64,000 bases of DNA from a virus (IMGVR_UViG_2740892439_000009); one strand, 5' to 3'. Shown: positions 3,001 through 61,219, counted from the stretch's first letter. A program made the numbers and translations. The notes: generated from the letters alone by a model not told the origin.

Positions 3001-5424
3001 AATCCGAACACTACAACGTCTATCGAGACCAGCCAGGGTGCGAAAGGTAACAACAGTGATGGCCGTGCGCAGTTCACGCTGACCACTTCATGGTCCCGCT
3101 ATTGGGTTAAGTGGAAACAGACACCTACCACGAGTACCAAGCGCCTGATTCTGTGTCGTATCGAGAGCAATACCTCCAAAGACCAGACGGTGTACATCAA
3201 CAGTCCGAAGTTTGAGGTAGGTAACGTTGTTTCCGACTGGAACGAGTCTCCGTCTGATAGTGCCAGTGCGTCGGCTGTGGACTCGCTGACAACGAAAGTG
3301 AATCAGCAGGGCACTTCCATTAGCTCTATCGGAAATCGCACCACATCGTTGGAAAACGGGTTATCGACAGCTCAAAACAATATTGCCAAGAAGGCTGATG
3401 CTTCTGCATTGCAGGATCTCCGGAACACGGTGACATCTCAGGGTGATGATTTAACTGCGGCGAACAGCAGCATTACCAGCCTGCATGCCTCGATGAACCG
3501 TCGCACTGTGTTTACTGTCACTGCACGGGGTAATGGCAACAGCGTTACCCATGGGGTGTTTGATGAAAGCGGCAAGAATCTGTTTACCCCTGGTCGCAGC
3601 TGGGCGCTGGTCACTTTTGCAAAACACAGCGACGGATCAACGGTGATTGCGACCTCCAAAACATACGATGTCTTTGGCAGCGCGAATAATGGCGCCACGA
3701 TGTCGGCTGATATCGAGGCACTGGCCAGTGGGACTTACGTTTGCGTCCTGACATTCGATGAGCCAACTGGCAACCGAGGTAAGGTGTTGTCTGCCCTGGA
3801 ATCTCTTGGTGGCACTTCCGAAGTCGTTAACTCTCTGCCGTATCGTGGCGCCTACATTCTCCTTGGCCGCAAAGGTATGAAGCCGGGCGATGGTCTGGAA
3901 CTGCGTGCGCCAACCGGTGGCGACGGCACCGCCCACATTTCGACCTCAGTCGAGTTTGTGAACGGGGTAATGATGGGGCTGGGCGCCGCTGGTGGTGTGA
4001 TGATGAAGGCTGATGCGAACGCATCTGCAATTACCACGCTCCAGAATACAGTGAAGACCCAAGGGGATAATATTGACTCCCTGAGCTCCTCGACAACAGC
4101 GCTGGAAAACAGCCTTGCGTCCAGTAACGTCAGCGTGGATGCAGCAAGCCAGATCCCCGGTAACCTGATCGTAAACCCGTCTTTTGAGCGTGGTACGGAG
4201 GGCTACACTGGTTGGAGCGGTATTGCCACGGTGGCAACGCTGCAGGTTCCACATCTTGGCACCAAAGCCGCCAAACTAGCGGCGGGTGGTTCTGCAGGCG
4301 TGGGCCAGAAGATCTCCTTCAAAAAGGATCGGTCGTACAAAATTGGTATTTGGGCAAAGCAGGACCCTAATACCACCATTCAGTCGACCGACAACACAAA
4401 ATTCCGTGTGGCTGACGGTACTGGCCTGATTGCAAGTAAGGTTTATGGTCCGTTCACCTCGAACTGGCAGGAGGTGTCATGGACATGGAAGGCGACAAAG
4501 GATGTCCTTGCTGACGTTCAGTTCACTGCTTTCTTGTCAGCCGGCGCGATGTACTTTGATGATTTTTACGTCGTCGATGTGACCGACTCAGTTGAAACTC
4601 AGGCGAACTCGAGTGCGATCACGAAGCTCGATAGTCGTGTGACCAAGACAGAGAATGACATCACCAGCCAGGGCAGCCAGGTTACGCAACTTAAGAATGA
4701 CCTTGCTACCACAAACACAAATGTTTCGAAGAAAGCGGATGCAGCTGCGTTAACGGCATTAACGAACCGCGTCACGCAGAATGAGAAAGAAATTGGAACC
4801 CAGAGCAGCCAGACAACTTCGCTCAAAAACTCTTTGAGCACTGTTCAGGCAATGGGAAGCAACCCGTGGTTTGATGGTTCTCTGGAGACGTACTCCGAAA
4901 ACCAGCAGATCAGCGGCTCGCGCGCGGTCGTCGTCAGCTCTCAGAAACGAAGCGGAACGAAGTCGTTGCGTGTTTCCCGCGGCGCCGGTGAGGGCGGAAA
5001 CAGCGATAAAACCATCGGTAAGTGGATTGCTCTGCGTGAAAATGCGGTATTCCGCATTGAACTCTGGGCGATGATGCCGGCAGATCAGTCGCCATCATCC
5101 GGGTGGTCAACGCTCGTTGGTTTGCAGACCCAAAACGCTGCCAACAACAATAACTGGCCGACGGCAATCACTATCAATGAAGCCGCATTGGGTGCAAGAG
5201 GCGCATGGAAGAAATTCACCGGTACGCTCCGTGTAGCCGCTGGCCACACTCGCGGCGCATTTTGGGTATCTACCGCGGCACAACTGGCACTGGTACACCG
5301 GGGTATGATCTGTATATCGATGACGTTGTTGTCACCGATATCACCGACGCAAAAGAGGCTCAAGATTCGGCTAATTCGAACGCATCCGCGCTCACCAGCC
5401 TTACCTCACGTGTTACCAATGTAG
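1..5424 (+). CDS. Lateral (L-shaped) tail fibre protein, LtfA-like; 5'-partial upstream segment, frame lost near 5270
   Basis: Frame open from base 1. About 8 diverged tandem modules, each with a coiled-coil stretch (QQGDxITSQGNSITKLTNDL..KKADQSAL) followed by a beta-rich domain ending in (F/Y)xDDxxVxDVTD. The last ~50 codons of this frame look like nonsense. Confidence 0.75.
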   Translation, partial: AGSYVIAHYKAFVKVNADTTITMAPGSRVFDDTGAVYVNGVRVAFGNASWNTVSFDLKAGWSTVEFLVNQWTGQAYINLGFKLSEKVAQLNSALGMNALSNAISAVTSNVSTVGDRVTSTSQSVTDLRNSLEQTNANLANKADAQALSTLQNTVSKQGDTISSQGNSITNLNNTLTAARNAGDNLIPNYDFLQGATAWDIQYPAGVAFGNFGDGKAGVKLNRTTTTSPGIFSNNNKPLPLNGQRKYRVVVKAKGVSGAMNMLIRRQNKIGQTDSNYEDKNVTLTSEWQTITWETGLTASNADGQNFKLYAHPANAEIWVDTFKVFDITDEVKIKANSDALSTLSSTVTQQGDKITSQGNSITKLTNDLEVADANIAKKADQSAVTTLTGRVEKTESGLTAANSNITSLSSSLNQQSKRGANLLPDGTFESYAVGHNLSNNRVIVTTDDSHGGSKCIRVTRPNDYNANATDNSDNHIFSGFQVRDNAVFYMECWVKLDAKSTAMAENAQISIGLSLQYQDNSWQWPAVTKAAKDLSTAQWTKVSGYLKSTKSGIKQAMVRISIPNVSSVKAGNSFLIDDLVITEVTDAYNAQSTADANANAISTLDSTVSQQGDQITSQGNSITKLTNDLATTNNNVSKKADQSALSVLSGRVDQTESGLSSANSSITALNSSVRAGNATSGDLISNPTFDPEFSQMGFTVVSSSSEGVPANCPYAYVARIAARDHHPNFAAIPATLGDVYEMSALVACGTGSADFNLYLGTATRPSGSVGAPLSSGGNRKASATWQRVTWRFKITQGIVDRGFFRPFLQINQSSPFGTVWYVTDWHLRNVTDSSKVQDSLDATAKAVDSLTSTVNQQGENISSIGTRTTNLENNLRTTNANVAQKADANALTALTNRVTQTEKDINSTSSSVTNLNNKVDAISVGGTNLIKNSGDMTGWSNVTSDTYRGNAVIGATVKAGSGYKDLREITLESPVDAGEYVYSFYAKGGVAGQIMTAFFYNPNTTTSIETSQGAKGNNSDGRAQFTLTTSWSRYWVKWKQTPTTSTKRLILCRIESNTSKDQTVYINSPKFEVGNVVSDWNESPSDSASASAVDSLTTKVNQQGTSISSIGNRTTSLENGLSTAQNNIAKKADASALQDLRNTVTSQGDDLTAANSSITSLHASMNRRTVFTVTARGNGNSVTHGVFDESGKNLFTPGRSWALVTFAKHSDGSTVIATSKTYDVFGSANNGATMSADIEALASGTYVCVLTFDEPTGNRGKVLSALESLGGTSEVVNSLPYRGAYILLGRKGMKPGDGLELRAPTGGDGTAHISTSVEFVNGVMMGLGAAGGVMMKADANASAITTLQNTVKTQGDNIDSLSSSTTALENSLASSNVSVDAASQIPGNLIVNPSFERGTEGYTGWSGIATVATLQVPHLGTKAAKLAAGGSAGVGQKISFKKDRSYKIGIWAKQDPNTTIQSTDNTKFRVADGTGLIASKVYGPFTSNWQEVSWTWKATKDVLADVQFTAFLSAGAMYFDDFYVVDVTDSVETQANSSAITKLDSRVTKTENDITSQGSQVTQLKNDLATTNTNVSKKADAAALTALTNRVTQNEKEIGTQSSQTTSLKNSLSTVQAMGSNPWFDGSLETYSENQQISGSRAVVVSSQKRSGTKSLRVSRGAGEGGNSDKTIGKWIALRENAVFRIELWAMMPADQSPSSGWSTLVGLQTQNAANNNNWPTAITINEAALGARGAWKKFTGTLRVAAGHTRGAFWVSTAAQLALVHRGMICISMTLLSPISPTQKRLKIRLIRTHPRSPALPHVLPM

Positions 5425-6581
5425 AAGGGCAGGTGACATCCCAGGCGTCTCAGCTGTCCTCTTTGACGTCCCAGGTGAATGATGCGTCTTCGAAGGTTGA
5501 TCAGATGGCGCAAACCATCACCAACAACGAGAAAACGCAGTCGTCGCTGAATACCAGCTTGCAGTCGCAAATTGATGCGCAGGCATCGGCAAACATCAAG
5601 AACCAGACGGAGTTGAATAACGCCACCACTTCGATGGCGGCAATTAAATCAACTCAGCAGACTCAGGCCACAACGATTAGTGCACTGTCTCAGCAGCAAA
5701 CGAATTTAACGGCCCAGGTAGGAGGCCAGTCAGCCGAGCTGCAGGAGCTGAAGAAAACGGTTGTTGAAAACGGCAACGTTAACAGCACCTGGATGGTCAA
5801 AATGGAAACCAACAGCAACGGTAAAAAGTATGCTGCTGGTATAGCTTTAGGTATCGATGGCAAAAATTTGCAGAGCCAGTTTCTGGTTCAGGCTGATCGC
5901 TTCGGCTTAATCAACACCTCTAACGGGAATACGACTACACCTTTCGTTATCGAAAATGGCGTTGCGTATATTAATGCCGCTGTCATTAAAGATGGCTCGA
6001 TCACCAATGCGAAAATTGGAGGCGAAATCCGTTCTGACAATTTCGTTAATGGTTCAAATGGCTGGAGAATTGGAAAAGACGGTAGTTCACAGTTCAACAA
6101 TGCGATATTCAGAGGTCATATTGAAGCGCGCAGTGGTACGTTCAAAGGAACCCTGGAAGCTCAAAACTTTATTGGTGATATCGCTGTAGCTCGGCGTTAT
6201 GCGGATTTATCGTTCCGTCGTAACAACACCGTACAGCGTGATGGTCGTTACCAGAACCGCGGATACGGTATGACTATTGTGCTAAGTTGTACCCTGATAT
6301 ATCAGGTTACTGGGGGGAATGAGGATCGTAACGGTTATATTGTTGAAATGACATTTAACGTTGGCGGTCAGGAGGTAACTCGCCGTTTCCCGATCAACCC
6401 GCGAATGAATATGGGCTCCTACTCGATGGAGTTTCGTTTTGCAGCGGATATTCCAGGCAACTATGACAACGTCCCGTTCTTTGTAAGAGCACGTGGTCGG
6501 GATGCTACTTGGGACTACCAGTGTTATGTAGAAAACATCACTGCCACTGCTTTCCGTACAAACAGCAACTCATTCAGCTAA
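5205..6581 (+). CDS. LtfA continuation in the -1 frame (C-terminal coiled-coil and distal tip domain)
   Basis: This frame carries the expected module end TGTGTPGYDLYIDDVVVTDITDA, then a further coiled-coil repeat and a beta-rich C-terminal domain. A hairpin GGCGCCCC..GGGGCGCC follows the stop. Confidence 0.7.
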   Translation: MEEIHRYAPCSRWPHSRRILGIYRGTTGTGTPGYDLYIDDVVVTDITDAKEAQDSANSNASALTSLTSRVTNVEGQVTSQASQLSSLTSQVNDASSKVDQMAQTITNNEKTQSSLNTSLQSQIDAQASANIKNQTELNNATTSMAAIKSTQQTQATTISALSQQQTNLTAQVGGQSAELQELKKTVVENGNVNSTWMVKMETNSNGKKYAAGIALGIDGKNLQSQFLVQADRFGLINTSNGNTTTPFVIENGVAYINAAVIKDGSITNAKIGGEIRSDNFVNGSNGWRIGKDGSSQFNNAIFRGHIEARSGTFKGTLEAQNFIGDIAVARRYADLSFRRNNTVQRDGRYQNRGYGMTIVLSCTLIYQVTGGNEDRNGYIVEMTFNVGGQEVTRRFPINPRMNMGSYSMEFRFAADIPGNYDNVPFFVRARGRDATWDYQCYVENITATAFRTNSNSFS

Positions 6582-11147: not shown

Positions 11148-11816
11148 ATGACCAAGATCTTTGTGGTTGGCGGCACAAAGGGCGGGCCTGGCAAATCCAC
11201 CGTTGCCCAGCAAATTGCCGTTTGCCTGAAAGTCAAAAAGAAGAAGAAGGTTTATATCACCGATATAGATATTCAGCGCACGACAACGAGCTGGTGTGAA
11301 GACCGTCGACAGAACGAAGACCTTGAGCTGATTCCTTTTGCATACGTTCAGGATGACATCATTAAGCACCTAAAATCGCTTCAGGGTAGAGCTGAGTTTG
11401 TAGTGGTAGATGCTGGTGGCTTCGACTCCGAAATTCAGCGACAAGCGATGCTGATGGCTGACGTTATCATTATCCCGCTGCGTCCTAAGCGTCGTGATTT
11501 GAAATCTTTACGTGACATCGATCCTATTATCGACAATGTTCGCAATGTAAACGATAAAGTGAAGGTCCGCGCGGTCATGAACCAGTGCCCGGCTTTGCCA
11601 TCACAAGTGTCTCGCATTCTGGCGGCTAAAGAGATTGTCGAGACGTTTGGCATCGAGTCTGCGCCAGTCAATCTATATAACCGCAACGTCTACGATGATG
11701 CGGAAGAGTCTGGTCGTTCTATCTTCGAAATGACCGGTAGCGAGCGCGACAAAAAGGCGGAAGCCGAGTTTGAAGAATTTGTAGATTATCTGTTGAGTCT
11801 GGAGGAAGAAGAATAA
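11148..11816 (+). CDS. parA: ParA-family partition ATPase (small, type Ib)
   Basis: Deviant Walker A GGTKGGPGKST; size about 220 aa; followed by a small RHH-like gene. Confidence 0.8.
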   Translation: MTKIFVVGGTKGGPGKSTVAQQIAVCLKVKKKKKVYITDIDIQRTTTSWCEDRRQNEDLELIPFAYVQDDIIKHLKSLQGRAEFVVVDAGGFDSEIQRQAMLMADVIIIPLRPKRRDLKSLRDIDPIIDNVRNVNDKVKVRAVMNQCPALPSQVSRILAAKEIVETFGIESAPVNLYNRNVYDDAEESGRSIFEMTGSERDKKAEAEFEEFVDYLLSLEEEE

Positions 11817-12175
11817 TGTCCATGAAAATGGGTGACCTAGCAAAGCGCAAAGAGCCTGATGCACCGGCTAAGAACACAACTCCTTTGCGCCAACCAGTCA
11901 GACCACAAGGACGCCCGACTCGTGGCAAAGAGAAAATTAAAAGCCGCACCATGTCACTGGAAGACGAATACTTCGAGCTTCTGGAAATGATGAAGTTTAT
12001 CCCTCGTTTCGAGAAGTTCACCCGCTCTGATGTGATTCGTGCTGCTATTTTCCATCTGGCAGAGAAGTCGCCGCAGGAAATCGAGGATATCGTGAAACTT
12101 AACGAGGCGATCACTGCTGCCGACGTCACGATGCGTACCGATGAAATCAAACGCGAGTTGATGAAGAAAGGTTAA
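11816..12175 (+). CDS. ParG-like ribbon-helix-helix centromere-binding protein (candidate)
   Basis: Basic disordered N-terminus and C-terminal RHH-like segment; start overlaps the parA stop; terminator hairpin GAGGTGC..GCACCTC downstream. Confidence 0.5.
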   Translation: MSMKMGDLAKRKEPDAPAKNTTPLRQPVRPQGRPTRGKEKIKSRTMSLEDEYFELLEMMKFIPRFEKFTRSDVIRAAIFHLAEKSPQEIEDIVKLNEAITAADVTMRTDEIKRELMKKG

Positions 12176-12219
12176 TTTTATTGAGGTGCTGCTTGGCACC
12201 TCTTTCTATAGGTTCCCTA

Positions 12220-12939
12220 ATGCTCTACAAATATATTGGAAGTGAAGATTCGCAAAAAGTGTTACGTAACCTCAAACGGTTTGTAGAGGACGGCACTATC
12301 TCTGCTAGCGCACCTTCTTCATTCAACGACCCATCAGAGTTCAAAGTTTCGATAACGATGGGAGGTACAGAAGTGGAGCGCCGGAAACACTTTGAAGACA
12401 ATGGATGTAAGGATTTTTCCTTTGAAGACTGGGATGCTGTAGCTCCTGAAGCTGCAAAATCGTTGGCTGTGGATTTGCGGAAAGAATCATTAGGGGCTTT
12501 TGGTGTGGTGTGCTTGTCACCAAACGAAGATAACATCTTGATGTGGTCACATTACTCAGTGTCGCATAAAGGTTTCTGCATAGGCTTTGATGATGATTTT
12601 GTTACCTCTATTGAGGGGTATCACAGCTTTGATAATGTGAAATATATACCTTCTGTTCCCGTGTTCGATGAAGTTACAGATGAGTTTAAGGTACTTTTTG
12701 ATAAGCTCTTTTTCTACAAGCACGAATGCTGGAAATATGAGGAAGAACAAAGGGTTATTACTAAAAAAATAGGCGCTCAGGCATTTGATAAGAAATATAT
12801 TAGAGAGATCATTCTTGGACATAACGTTTCTCCTGAAGTAGAAGAATATGCCCGGACACAGCTAGACACGAGCATCGAGGTTTACAAAATGAGTACACCT
12901 GATGATGGTTATCTTCTTGTCAAAGAAAAGCTGAAGTAG
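12220..12939 (+). CDS. DUF2971-like protein
   Basis: N-terminal LYKY..FNDPSEF signature as recalled for DUF2971; AT-rich relative to flanking genes. Confidence 0.4.
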   Translation: MLYKYIGSEDSQKVLRNLKRFVEDGTISASAPSSFNDPSEFKVSITMGGTEVERRKHFEDNGCKDFSFEDWDAVAPEAAKSLAVDLRKESLGAFGVVCLSPNEDNILMWSHYSVSHKGFCIGFDDDFVTSIEGYHSFDNVKYIPSVPVFDEVTDEFKVLFDKLFFYKHECWKYEEEQRVITKKIGAQAFDKKYIREIILGHNVSPEVEEYARTQLDTSIEVYKMSTPDDGYLLVKEKLK

Positions 12940-13005
12940 CTCCAGACTTTCCTCAAATGATTATGTTGGGCGCTTTTCTTATTGAACTGGTTAGTGAGGC
13001 TAATA

Positions 13006-14178
13006 ATGGATTTGTTCTCAACCAAAATAGCAAAAAACAAGCTGCACGAATCTTTTAAACAGATTTATCAAGATAATACATATGCTCCAGTAAGAGAAGT
13101 GATACAGTCGTGGGGGCGTGGGTTACTGGAGCGTAGCGGTGAGCAGACTAAATTCGTTAAAGAGTTTCAGACAACCTTCAATTCCGCCTTATGGGAATTG
13201 TATCTGAACGAAATGTTTATTCGTCTCGATTATTCTGTCGACTACACAAAAGACAGTCCCGATTTCTGTGTTACTACACCGTCAGGCTACCAGTTTAACG
13301 TCGAAGCTGTGATATCAGATCGGCCACATAATCCACCTGCAGGTGCTCTTTTTAGCGAATCAAAATTCAAACATCAATCAACGCTAAAATTAATCGGAAA
13401 AATCAAAGACAAACATGATCTTTTTACAGGAGTTAATGGCAAAAAATTCCCGTACTCTACGATGTCTCATGTAGTTAATAAGCCGTTTGTTCTGGCGCTT
13501 GCACCCTTTGACTCCGATTTATCATTGTCTCAAAATAACACAATCATCAATCGAGTGTTGTTTGGCATTGAGGAACCTACCACCAGAAATTTGGTGACTG
13601 GCAGCCAAACTAAAGTTACCTCAATCAAAAAGAATGAAGACGTTGAAATTCCATTAGGTATATTTACTAACGACTCATATAAAGAAATAAGTGCGGTTAT
13701 TTTCTCCACCACCGGCACTTTTGGAAAAGCCGTGGTTCAAAGCGGTATCGGTAGATATGTAAGGTCAACACGATATCGAGCCATTGATGTGAATGATTTC
13801 ATCGCCAATGAAGGGATGAAAAACGAGGGAAAGCACACACAAAGGATAGGACCTGATCATTTCATCACTACATATCGGCATTTTTTAAATAACGAAGTCA
13901 CTGGTGCGGATATTGTAGTTTGCCATTCCACTGCTCATGAAGAGACGCACTTTGACGGCCTTCATATTTACTACAATCCTTTTGCGACAGTGCCACTGGA
14001 CAGAAATATTTTCTTCCCCCCAGAGATAACTCATAATTTTTACGATATGGAAAAAGAACAGTCTGTTCAGAATCATCCTGATGGAGCGCTGGTATCTAGA
14101 CAGGTTTTTGAACCAACTAGAGCACATTTTAGGTATATCATGAAACATTGGTTTCCAGGCTTTCTAAAAGATGTTTAA
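13006..14178 (+). CDS. Hypothetical protein (about 390 aa) in AT-rich island
   Basis: ATG with GAGG upstream; no recognisable motifs; low GC. Confidence 0.5.
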   Translation: MDLFSTKIAKNKLHESFKQIYQDNTYAPVREVIQSWGRGLLERSGEQTKFVKEFQTTFNSALWELYLNEMFIRLDYSVDYTKDSPDFCVTTPSGYQFNVEAVISDRPHNPPAGALFSESKFKHQSTLKLIGKIKDKHDLFTGVNGKKFPYSTMSHVVNKPFVLALAPFDSDLSLSQNNTIINRVLFGIEEPTTRNLVTGSQTKVTSIKKNEDVEIPLGIFTNDSYKEISAVIFSTTGTFGKAVVQSGIGRYVRSTRYRAIDVNDFIANEGMKNEGKHTQRIGPDHFITTYRHFLNNEVTGADIVVCHSTAHEETHFDGLHIYYNPFATVPLDRNIFFPPEITHNFYDMEKEQSVQNHPDGALVSRQVFEPTRAHFRYIMKHWFPGFLKDV

Positions 14179-14195
14179 GCATCCTGCTGGTTGAA

Positions 14196-14265
14196 TTTGG
14201 AACCTGCTTCTGTATATAAATACTAAGTTACTTATTATTATTTATACGGAAGCAGGTCTTTTTCT
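14196..14265. repeat. Palindromic element CTGCTTCTGTATATAAATA..TACGGAAGCAGG (second copy near 61041-61105)
   Basis: 9-bp inverted repeat arms around an AT-rich core containing TATAAATA; followed by a T tract. Confidence 0.6.
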
Positions 14266-14366
14266 ATGCCAACTTCCCAGACACATTCCCTTCCGTTTCC
14301 ACTTCCAAAAACTGCCACCAGTCGCTATCATCCGCTCATTGCAATAAGTAAGTAACTACCTATCGG

Positions 14367-15159: not shown

Positions 15160-16098
15160 ATGACCGAACTTTGCCATACAGGACGCGGGCTGTCCGAAGA
15201 GTTTGATGAAGATTTCCAGAACAGACTGACGGCATATTTTTGTCGTGATCACGAGTTTCTTACTCGTGCGGGAGATCTGGTTGTGCCTAGCCAATTTGCC
15301 AATGCGGCCAATGCCATATTGGTTAATATGGTTTCGGGCTATTACCGTATGTACAAGAGCGCGCCTTCTTCATCTGCGATTCTGGATATGCTTAAGCGCG
15401 CGAAACGCGATAAGACCATCCGTGAGGAACTCTTCCCGGATGTTGTTGCTGCGTTTAAGCGCATCCTTGCAGAAAAATTGTCTGATACCTCGTACATGGT
15501 TGACCAGGTATCCACATTCGCAAAAAGTGTAGCGTTTGATGATGCTCTGATTAAAGCTGCTGAACTGAAAGAGAAGGGCGACTTTCAGGGGGCGATGGCA
15601 ATCATGGCCAAGGTTCAGCAGATAGGCTCGAACGAAGCGACCGGAATCTATGACTACTACACCTCCGCAAGTGAGCGATTGAAAGCGCGTGAATATGAGG
15701 CTTCAGAGGAGTATGTGCCAAACAGCATTACAACTGGACTCCCTCTGCTTGATAGATTGCTGTACCAAAAAGGCTGGGCGAAGCGTGAAATGGTGCTCTT
15801 CATGGGGTTCGCTAAATCCGGTAAATCGACCGCAATGGGTGAGTTTTCCATAAACGCAACACTTGCTGGCTACAATGTTCTGTATCTCTCGCTGGAGGTT
15901 CACACCACCATTTTATCCGACCGTTTTGATGCAAGATTGTCGGAGACAGAAATGTCCAGGCTGGTGGAACGGCGCGATGAGGTTCATCGTAAGTTGGCAG
16001 AGTTGGGAGCACGAAGGGGATTGGTAGTTTGTGGGTGGTTGAGCGTCCGTCAGGAAGTATGTCACCGGCAGATCTGGACCGTATGCTTAACAGCATGA
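15160..16098 (+). CDS. DnaB-like replicative helicase, N-terminal segment with Walker A (frame lost near 16020)
   Basis: ITTGLPLLDRLL..GFAKSGKST resembles the DnaB Walker A region; conserved start context AAAGGAAAGCACATG. Confidence 0.75.
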   Translation: MTELCHTGRGLSEEFDEDFQNRLTAYFCRDHEFLTRAGDLVVPSQFANAANAILVNMVSGYYRMYKSAPSSSAILDMLKRAKRDKTIREELFPDVVAAFKRILAEKLSDTSYMVDQVSTFAKSVAFDDALIKAAELKEKGDFQGAMAIMAKVQQIGSNEATGIYDYYTSASERLKAREYEASEEYVPNSITTGLPLLDRLLYQKGWAKREMVLFMGFAKSGKSTAMGEFSINATLAGYNVLYLSLEVHTTILSDRFDARLSETEMSRLVERRDEVHRKLAELGARRGLVVCGWLSVRQEVCHRQIWTVCLTA

Positions 16099-16499
16099 AA
16101 GCCAACGGCATGGTGCCTGATATGGTTGTTGTCGACTACGCAGATTTGATGCGTGCCAGTTATGACCTTCGTGATGATCGCGCCAACATTCGTAGTATCT
16201 ACACCGATTTACGTGCTCTTTATGACAAACATAACGTTGCTGGAATCACGGCATCGCAGACAAACCGTGAAGGTGGCGCGTCAGAAGTTGCCACAATGAT
16301 GCACGCCGCCGACAACATCGAAAAAGTACGTATTGCTGACCTGGTAATAACGATCAACAAAACCGAAGAAGAAGAAGCGAAAGGAGAGGCTCGTCTCTAC
16401 TTTGCTGGTTCACGTAACCAGCAGGGAGGGATCAGCATTCGTGTTAAACAAAACCTCGAACAAATGCGCTTCATTGAGCGAATCTTAGACGTTACCTAA
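16029..16499 (+). CDS. DnaB-like helicase C-terminal segment (-1 frame)
   Basis: DMVVVDYADLM and QTNREGG motifs typical of the DnaB C-terminal RecA-like domain. Confidence 0.7.
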   Translation: MWVVERPSGSMSPADLDRMLNSMKANGMVPDMVVVDYADLMRASYDLRDDRANIRSIYTDLRALYDKHNVAGITASQTNREGGASEVATMMHAADNIEKVRIADLVITINKTEEEEAKGEARLYFAGSRNQQGGISIRVKQNLEQMRFIERILDVT

Positions 16500-60440: not shown

Positions 60441-61034
60441 ATGATTGCAGCCGAAAAAATCAAACAGCGAAAGCGCGACAACTCTCTTCGTGACCTCTGG
60501 AGAACACCTGATTGGCTGTTTTCTGCCATTCAACGTTATCTTGGAGTGACATTTGATGTTGACGTTGCCTGCAACAAGGACAATGCAAAGCTGCCTAATT
60601 TCATAGGCGTTGAGCGCGATGCTTTGAAATCTGAATGGGGACAGCCAGGTACAATTGCCTTCCTCAATCCACCCTACTCCAAAATCTCCCCCTGGATTGA
60701 TGCTGCTATACGTGAGCAGGCTCGCGGAGTTACAACAGTGATGCTAATTCCTCAATCCCTCGATACAAAGTGGTATGAGCGTGCAACAGAGTATGCGAAT
60801 GAGACGATTATTCTGTCTGGTGGCCGCGTAGCGTTTGTCGAGCCTGACGTCAATTTGGGTCAGGTAGAAGTAAACATCAACCCCGGTGGCAGTATGCTCG
60901 TTGTTTTTCGAGGGTTTTGTCAGGACGCTGGGCACTCTATAAGCAAGATCCCTTTGGACGTCATGAAAAGTCTGGGAGGGTATGACCCTGCGAATGTGAT
61001 CAGGAAAAAAAGACCATCAAAGAAGGCTGCTTAG
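60441..61034 (+). CDS. DNA N6-adenine methyltransferase, phage Dam family
   Basis: WRTPDWLF and NPPYS motifs. Confidence 0.7.
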   Translation: MIAAEKIKQRKRDNSLRDLWRTPDWLFSAIQRYLGVTFDVDVACNKDNAKLPNFIGVERDALKSEWGQPGTIAFLNPPYSKISPWIDAAIREQARGVTTVMLIPQSLDTKWYERATEYANETIILSGGRVAFVEPDVNLGQVEVNINPGGSMLVVFRGFCQDAGHSISKIPLDVMKSLGGYDPANVIRKKRPSKKAA

Positions 61035-61219
61035 TTTGCTCTGGCGTCTGTAATTAGCTGCTTCTGTATATATAAATAACTACATATTAATTATTAATAT
61101 ACGGAAGCAGGCTGTTTTGTATCAGAGACTCCCAGACCTGAACATCACTACAGAATCCACTAGAACCCCTTCCCAGACGCTTTAAAATCGATTTTATGAA
61201 CCACTTTAAGGAAACCAAC

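Follow-up and report, generated by a model that had tools for sequence, protein, structure and literature searches.

A DUF2971 gene and a PD-T7-5-family gene as probable defence cargo of a variable slot in an SSU5-like phage-plasmid

Among the anti-phage systems described so far, those closest to the locus considered here include PD-T7-5, one of the 21 that a functional selection in E. coli yielded (Vassallo et al., 2022, PMC9519451). PD-T7-5 is a single gene from strain UMB0934 that was selected with T7 and annotated as "Nuclease", HHpred having weakly seen Hjc, FokI and PDDEXK in the original protein; its P4-like satellite allele, expressed alone from the native promoter, protects E. coli K-12 (PMC9519451). 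A second comparison is offered by proteins with a DUF2971 domain. These are predicted ADP-ribosyltransferases (ARTs) resembling DarT and AbiGi, in which a Tyr and an ExE are conserved (PMC12522546), and one DUF2971 protein encoded by a lactococcal plasmid, Aristaios, was shown experimentally to be a single-gene system with an abortive infection phenotype (PMC11381338). As for where such genes are found, P2, at its old/tin locus, and P4 have defence hotspots (PMC9519451, citing Rousset et al., 2022), and a DefenseFinder survey of the SSU5 group reported PrrC, PD-T4-3, PD-T7-5 and RM systems in clade J (E. coli/Shigella), so that the presence of PD-T7-5 in SSU5-group phage-plasmids is already on record (bioRxiv 10.1101/2025.09.12.675607). 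The locus we describe carries a DUF2971 gene followed directly by a PD-T7-5-family gene, inserted between the partition and replication genes of one such element.

A variable slot between partition and replication genes

The window, by which we mean the whole 64,000-nt stretch of viral DNA analysed (IMGVR_UViG_2740892439_000009), comes from an SSU5-like phage-plasmid of E. coli, an assignment made because the flanks of the locus match Salmonella phage SSU5 and its relatives (Cyrano, CMS-2020a). Over the 4.2 kb around the locus, identity to E. coli plasmid pECAZ155_2 is 99.9%. The features of the locus are as follows.

11148-11816, ParA-type ATPase gene, upstream of the slot
11816-12175, 119-aa par-operon gene (stop codon 12173-12175), upstream of the slot
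12176-14201, no strand assigned, variable slot (cargo), set by homology breakpoints against relatives L002-L004 and L102-L104
12183-12202, + strand, hairpin and T-run at the left edge of the slot, from a terminator-like scan: GAGGTGCTGCTTGGCACCTC then TTTCT
12220-12939, + strand, ORF1, 239 aa, DUF2971 / PDC-S31, predicted ADP-ribosyltransferase (profiles, model)
12940-13005, + strand, 66-bp intergenic spacer with a GAGG ribosome-binding site at 12996-12999
13006-14178, + strand, ORF2, 390 aa, PD-T7-5-family protein (PADLOC profile)
14202-14266, + strand, long hairpin with an AT-rich loop (hairpin 14202-14258) and CTTTTTCT, terminator-like, part of the backbone

When the window is aligned with relatives that carry other cargo, homology breaks off where the 119-aa gene ends, at its stop codon, and returns at the hairpin near 14202. 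The slot thus delimited has the par operon on one side and, on the other, the phrog_2500 gene and DnaB-like helicase module, the order 3' of the slot being long hairpin, phrog_2500 gene, DnaB-like helicase and primase. The insert is about 2.0 kb long with both genes on the + strand, and an earlier note, made from the sequence alone, had correctly placed two genes at 12220-14178. No further ORF of useful size was found inside the slot. The 119-aa par-operon protein, labelled RHH in the note, matches phrog_5111, a family annotated as of unknown function; a Pfam search with it gave no match. Directly 3' of its stop codon sits the left hairpin, of which each cargo variant has its own version, in some cases with compensatory changes. 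The drop in GC content that the note had seen after this par terminator is real: GC is 0.402 in 12184-14201 vs 0.461 in the whole window (sd 0.033 among stretches of equal length), and only 3.9% of same-size windows have a value as low.

The cargo is uncommon and mobile. Among the 566 plasmids in PLSDB that match the flanks, 11 carry it (whole query covered), and it is present in 13 of 5426 complete E. coli genomes, every copy lying on a plasmid at no less than 99.8% identity. A Citrobacter freundii plasmid is particularly informative: its cargo is 99.3% identical to that of the window, whereas the full 4.2-kb region is just 91.7% identical, from which it follows that the cassette moved between diverged backbones. 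Together with the unrelated genes that relatives hold between the same flanks, this bears out the note's suggestion of horizontal acquisition, and on these alignments the content of the slot is swapped by recombination between related elements. At least nine types of cargo, PD-T7-5, PD-T4-3, PDC-S31 and PDC-S49 among them, are exchanged between conserved flanks:

SSU5 slot: three genes, one of them a different DUF2971 gene
Cyrano slot (L003): a DUF2971 gene alone
L004 slot: a KAP-type P-loop NTPase, matching the PADLOC candidate PDC-S49
Cronobacter pH322_1 slot (L102): a PD-T7-5 homologue alone
L114/L115 slot: a GIY-YIG protein matching PD-T4-3
Slots of other relatives: uncharacterised proteins of 225, about 355, 250+140 and 214+136 aa

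Because the same flanks hold differing cargo that includes known defence genes, the slot is, as judged from these comparisons, a mobile-element defence hotspot. In the literature searched we found no account of the SSU5 par-to-replication slot as a hotspot. The defence association proposed in the note is supported both by these slot contents and by the family matches presented below.

The right edge requires a different interpretation from the one first given to it. A palindrome of about 65 bp at 14196-14265 had been described as conserved and as the end of the island; it exists and is conserved, but it belongs to the backbone in 8/8 relatives and, since it is present whatever the cargo, it does not mark the island's edge. 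Its RNA is predicted to fold at -29.4 kcal/mol (z -5.9), its arms, ACCTG(C/T)TTCTGTATA, are kept in all eight relatives, and it is almost identical in SSU5 although the 4.2-kb match to SSU5 has only 85% identity. The element carries it again at 61056-61112, immediately 3' of a DNA methyltransferase gene, and both copies have a T-run followed by TCCCAGAC; matches to the arm number 4 vs 0.16 expected. Its conservation in the backbone and its second copy elsewhere in the element led us to reject the palindrome as a cargo boundary or mobile-element end. Most likely the hairpin terminates transcription leaving the slot and insulates the replication genes, and given its unusual conservation it may have a further role.

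The two genes and their families

ORF1 begins MLYKY...SSFNDPSEF. A mechanical ORF list lengthens both genes to upstream TTG codons (giving ORF2 a 398-aa form starting at TTG 12982); we take the ATG as the true start of each because the homologues begin at MLYKY and MDLF. The DUF2971 identity of ORF1, which the note had proposed from its N-terminal motif, held up in a profile search, with a match to Pfam PF11185 at E 1.3e-6 and 30.1 bits against a gathering cut-off of 22. Matches were also obtained to PADLOC PDC-S31 (E 4.7e-38, residues 2-234) and to phrog_1762 (E 3.6e-54). PDC-S31 is a computational candidate family in PADLOC, and the literature searched contained no mention and no published validation of it. 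Two motifs, W-S-H-Y (109-112) and Y-E-x-E-x-R (173-178), are among the residues invariant in the homologues, in keeping with a published account of DUF2971 as a DarT/AbiGi-like ART with a Tyr and ExE (PMC12522546). The predicted model of ORF1 has an ADP-ribosyltransferase fold closest to that of DarT, with the conserved Tyr and ExE present, which suggests that ORF1 is an ART of the DarT-like, nucleic-acid (DNA) type. The distance to DarT, a toxin that ADP-ribosylates thymidine or guanosine in ssDNA, is considerable: sequence identity is 9-16% and the two differ by large helical inserts. Aristaios (pUCCL641_199; 316 aa, Lactococcus) has in common with ORF1 (239 aa) the DUF2971 domain. We found no solved structures related by sequence to the family of either protein.

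Where else does ORF1 occur? Homologues at 52% identity stand alone in P2-like prophages, at both of the classic variable loci: the gap between tail-fibre assembly and sheath genes and the gap between gpA and portal genes, which are known defence hotspots (PMC9519451). This location supports an anti-phage role for ORF1 indirectly.

ORF2, the second gene, had been thought to be without recognisable motif, and this proved wrong. A Pfam search with ORF2 did return no match, yet the protein matches the PADLOC PD-T7-5 model (PDLC04110) over its full length at E 1.5e-139 and 462.9 bits, residues 9-379 of the 398-aa form aligning with positions 1-342 of the 346 in the model; the PADLOC PD-T7-1 model aligns with its first 240 residues. 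On these profiles ORF2 is a member of the PD-T7-5 family. Against P0037, the protein of the validated locus, which itself scores 456.5 bits with the PD-T7-5 model, ORF2 aligns gaplessly over 384 aa (76% identical, 88% similar), both proteins being 390 aa long and collinear. The description of the cargo as of unknown function therefore falls for this gene. The published primers PD-T7-5-F/-R (Table S8) match L021/L022 exactly; these are P4-like satellite loci adjoining smpB/ssrA, they encode P0037, and the cloned fragment is without a DUF2971 gene, so that this member of the family works alone. The primers, the gapless 76% identity and the solo clone together make ORF2 a close allele of a validated stand-alone system. 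That said, ORF2 has diverged by 24% from the validated protein, and specificity can change over such a distance.

We also considered that the validated clone had come from the same phage-plasmid context as ORF2, and rejected this since the published primers match L021/L022 and not the window. What had prompted the idea was the equal ORF length and a promoter-like hexamer from 12863, a position as far upstream of the ORF2 ATG as the published cloned region would span.

The AlphaFold model of ORF2 (pLDDT 88.9, pTM 0.89) suggests a PD-(D/E)xK-like nuclease fold in the N-terminal domain. Across 37 homologues, with identities as low as 48%, E64, D86 (in PDF) and E100 do not vary, and this conserved E...PD...E core is common to ORF2 and the validated PD-T7-5; the position of the canonical nuclease lysine is Val or Met across the family. 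For the β-rich C-terminal half we found no close or convincing structural match.

Linkage of the two genes and alternative readings

Are ORF1 and ORF2 one system or two? GAGG lies 6 nt 5' of the ORF2 ATG, and a scan revealed no terminator-like site on the + strand between ORF1 and ORF2. A promoter-like site immediately 5' of ORF1, whose start is 17 bp past the par terminator, was looked for and not seen, which makes expression of the cargo less certain. The exact ORF2 protein had the DUF2971 gene upstream in 10/10 contexts read. Moreover, at least four diverged versions of the pair exist (the window, L015-17, L018/19 and L109), some in further SSU5-like elements and some in another setting, adjoining a CbtA toxin gene. 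In the diverged copies PD-T7-5 stands at 76-80% and DUF2971 at 54-73% identity; order and orientation are kept and the spacers are 41-68 bp. Pairwise identities are congruent for both proteins, with the window and L018 in one group and L015, L109 and P0039/P0153 in another. In a Proteus prophage, an AbiGi gene precedes a PD-T7-5 homologue at 77% identity; AbiGi is a family related to DUF2971 within the ART superfamily. The window itself has a second pair at 22814-24918, comprising an AbiGi gene (24052-24918) and a 403-aa PD-ExK protein.

These observations speak for the pair forming one two-component, AbiG-like system, in which the ART-fold protein would mark phage DNA or RNA, or sense infection and regulate its partner, and the PD-T7-5-type nuclease would execute. 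We nevertheless regard this as unlikely. The validated PD-T7-5 works singly, without an ART neighbour, and an allele with 93-96% identity to the paired alleles stands alone in Cronobacter elements. More widely, 0 of 79 PD-T7-5 loci from diverse genomes have DUF2971 within 5 kb, in a collection that holds one genome per species and in which enterobacterial mobile elements are under-sampled. The upstream neighbours of these loci are mixed, the 29 co-directional ones falling into 15 unrelated Pfam families; on this variety and the 0/79 count we rejected a conserved partner gene for PD-T7-5 within that collection. Family members stand alone in the P4-like satellite, in Cronobacter elements and in the 79 diverse genomes, and DUF2971 homologues stand alone in P2 hotspots. 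Finally, unrelated defence genes are expected to cluster in hotspots in any case.

Is the pair, then, a form of AbiG? Lactococcal AbiG consists of AbiGi, about 240-290 aa, and AbiGii, about 400 aa, and it shares with ORF1/ORF2 a two-gene layout in which a protein of an ART-related superfamily is followed by one of roughly 400 aa. Membership was rejected on both genes with Pfam and PADLOC: ORF1 matches only DUF2971 / PDC-S31 and not AbiGi, and ORF2 matches only PD-T7-5 / PD-T7-1 and no AbiGii model. Homology of ORF2 to the 403-aa partner of AbiGi in the window was likewise rejected (hhalign probability 0.2-0.4%); that family, unrelated to PD-T7-5, is also found alone, in 186/P2-like prophages.

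Since each protein occurs alone elsewhere, neither can depend on the other as an obligate antidote or cofactor, and the most economical reading is that of two autonomous effectors travelling together as a cassette. The congruent, recurring pair and the Proteus AbiGi case do fit a functional link better than strict independence. One could imagine a coupled system in which the ART ADP-ribosylates phage DNA or senses infection and thereby licenses or directs the nuclease, as part of a wider class that joins an ART-superfamily protein to a PD-(D/E)xK protein of about 400 aa, and this we consider quite improbable. Candidate members of such a class are the DUF2971 and PD-T7-5 alleles, the AbiGi and PD-T7-5 pair of Proteus and the AbiGi and 403-aa pair at 22814-24918.

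A different view is that the cargo serves the lytic or competitive life of the phage-plasmid, the ART acting in host takeover or anti-defence and the nuclease degrading host or rival DNA or excluding superinfecting relatives. ARTs do serve phages as takeover enzymes, T4 Alt and Mod being examples, the slot adjoins replication genes, and close homologues of both genes are found almost exclusively on phages, satellites and phage-plasmids. Against this stand the protection that the P4-like satellite allele alone confers on E. coli K-12 (PMC9519451), the PD-T4-3 and other defence-type genes in the slots of relatives, and the dispensability of the cargo, which follows from its absence in most of the 566 relatives; we hold such a role to be very unlikely. 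Least credible of all is a toxin-antitoxin or addiction module stabilising the plasmid beside its par locus, for even though the genes lie directly 3' of parA/parB-like genes, ART and nuclease folds are frequent among toxins and AbiGi is labelled an antitoxin by Pfam, each gene occurs alone in many elements (the ground on which we rejected this reading), no DarG-like macrodomain (Pfam, ORF2 and par genes) or small antitoxin ORF was found, and about 98% of related plasmids with the same par genes are missing the cargo.

Proposed function and comparison with known hotspots

We conclude that the locus is probably defence-hotspot cargo of an SSU5-like phage-plasmid, consisting of two autonomous single-gene anti-phage effectors that are likely to be co-transcribed. 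By homology to the validated allele, ORF2 would restrict incoming T7-type phages, its N-terminal PD-(D/E)xK-like domain attacking phage nucleic acid and its C-terminal domain perhaps acting as sensor or regulator. ORF1, once infection is sensed, may use NAD+ to ADP-ribosylate nucleic acid or an essential factor and so block phage replication in the manner of abortive infection, a proposal made because of its DarT-like fold and the lactococcal DUF2971 system Aristaios. Acting in the same cell, the two would protect the lysogen from competing phages and, by that means, the phage-plasmid itself.

The cargo is thus a recognisable kind of defence cargo and not a new kind of system. The note had named as contrary to its own view the lack of a DUF2971 match together with a clear assignment of both proteins to replication or partition, and the profile matches show neither. 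Its modest novelty lies in how the slot is delimited, in the series of alleles and in the recurrence of DUF2971 and PD-T7-5 as a cassette. In its behaviour the par-to-replication slot of SSU5-like phage-plasmids resembles the P2 and P4 defence hotspots, and it therefore supplies a ready list of candidate defence genes, among them those encoding the 225-aa, 250+140-aa and roughly 355-aa proteins of relatives. It likewise provides a natural allele series for PD-T7-5 and for the enterobacterial DUF2971 ART, and cooperation between hotspot neighbours could be tested cheaply on the recurrent pair. Clinical E. coli, Shigella, Salmonella and Klebsiella commonly carry SSU5-like elements. The implication for phage therapy, and for the epidemiology of plasmids, is that cryptic "plasmids" of this type can alter the phage sensitivity of their hosts.

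How, finally, does the locus compare with what is already known? Relative to the validated PD-T7-5, ORF2 differs in its vehicle, a slot of an SSU5-like phage-plasmid and not a P4-like satellite, and in being preceded by a DUF2971 gene. In its setting the locus resembles the P2 old/tin and P4 hotspots, in which fixed flanks likewise surround exchangeable low-GC cargo of one to three genes. The cargo there, as in the slot described here, is a mixture of validated systems, such as PD-T7-5 and PD-T4-3, and unknowns, and homologues of both ORF1 and ORF2 are found in P2 and P4 hotspots. Unlike those hotspots, the one described here is carried by a phage-plasmid and lies between its partition and replication modules.

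A second nuclease-like pair and its relatives

The lowest-GC stretch of the whole window (GC about 0.34) is the site of a further two-gene locus, which is the element's second pair of an ADP-ribosyltransferase (ART)-superfamily gene and a nuclease-like gene of about 400 aa.

The AbiGi pair and adjoining gene
24918..24052, - strand: AbiGi gene, 288 aa (Pfam 2e-24, PADLOC 5.5e-47)
24025..22814, - strand: 403-aa protein gene, 3' of AbiGi, with a PD...ExK motif
22814-24918, - strand: the pair, whole span
25621-26724, + strand: tyrosine-integrase-like gene adjoining the pair

The 403-aa protein matched no Pfam or PADLOC profile. Its motif residues P80, D81, E96 and K98 are invariant among 28 homologues, and the family has no relationship to that of PD-T7-5 (hhalign probability 0.4%). 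A homologue with 44% identity occurs solo, adjoining the integrase in 186/P2-like prophages.

AbiGi also precedes a PD-T7-5 homologue, at 4187-6176 of a Proteus terrae prophage locus (L020), where the AbiGi gene (242 aa, Pfam 6.6e-49) is followed, after 85 bp, by the homologue (77% identical). This prophage is lambdoid; the pair is flanked in it by the lysis genes and by the region of antiterminator Q, with a Cap4-nuclease gene nearby. Homologues of the DUF2971 protein, 52% identical to that of the window, are found in both variable loci of P2-like prophages, one flanked by the genes for tail-fibre assembly and the sheath, the other by those for gpA and the portal (4001-4726 in L105-L108; 4001-4729 in L112). 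The L112 homologue sits next to a 324-aa unknown protein and a DUF4325 protein that weakly matches the DrmA model.

Hairpins and backbone genes

A long hairpin is present twice within the element, each copy directly 3' of a + strand gene and followed by a T-run and then the motif TCCCAGAC.

Copies of the long hairpin
14202-14258
61056-61112, 3' of a DNA methyltransferase gene (60441-61034)

Conservation of this hairpin exceeds that of the backbone around it, a hint that it may do more than terminate transcription. The terminator hairpin of the par operon (12183-12202; equivalents in L003 (phage Cyrano), L015 and L102) varies with the cargo while its pairing is kept (GAGGTGC...GCACCTC, GAGGCGC...GCGCCTC or AAGGCGT...ACGCCTT) and may therefore move with the cargo, not the backbone. 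Within that operon, the Cyrano homologue of the 119-aa gene (L003 1776-2135) is labelled "RelE/ParE putative toxin" in the phage's record; since the 119-aa protein has no Pfam match and matches phrog_5111 (unknown function), this label looks unsupported.

The DnaB-like helicase gene is intact (446 aa) in all relatives read. In the window a 1-bp deletion at about 16010 (GAGCCACG to GAG-CACG, with plasmid pECAZ155_2 as reference) breaks it up into a pair of overlapping ORFs, 15160-16098 and 16029-16499. Either this frameshift comes from a sequencing error, or the replication helicase is inactivated.

Other occupants of the slot

Several relatives carry slot proteins (250+140, about 355, 225 and 214+136 aa) that matched nothing in Pfam or PADLOC; because of their hotspot location we count them as candidates for new defence genes.

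Slot genes in relatives without a match
L103 1728-2895
L104 1737-2810, - strand
L113 1296-2354, - strand
L117 1271-1948, - strand
L116 1237-2278 / L002 2137-3181

In further E. coli SSU5-like plasmids the slot is filled by a 255-aa GIY-YIG protein (L114 1329-2096 and L115 1288-2055, both - strand) that matches PD-T4-3 (PADLOC E 1.3e-23), a system likewise validated by Vassallo et al. (PMC9519451).
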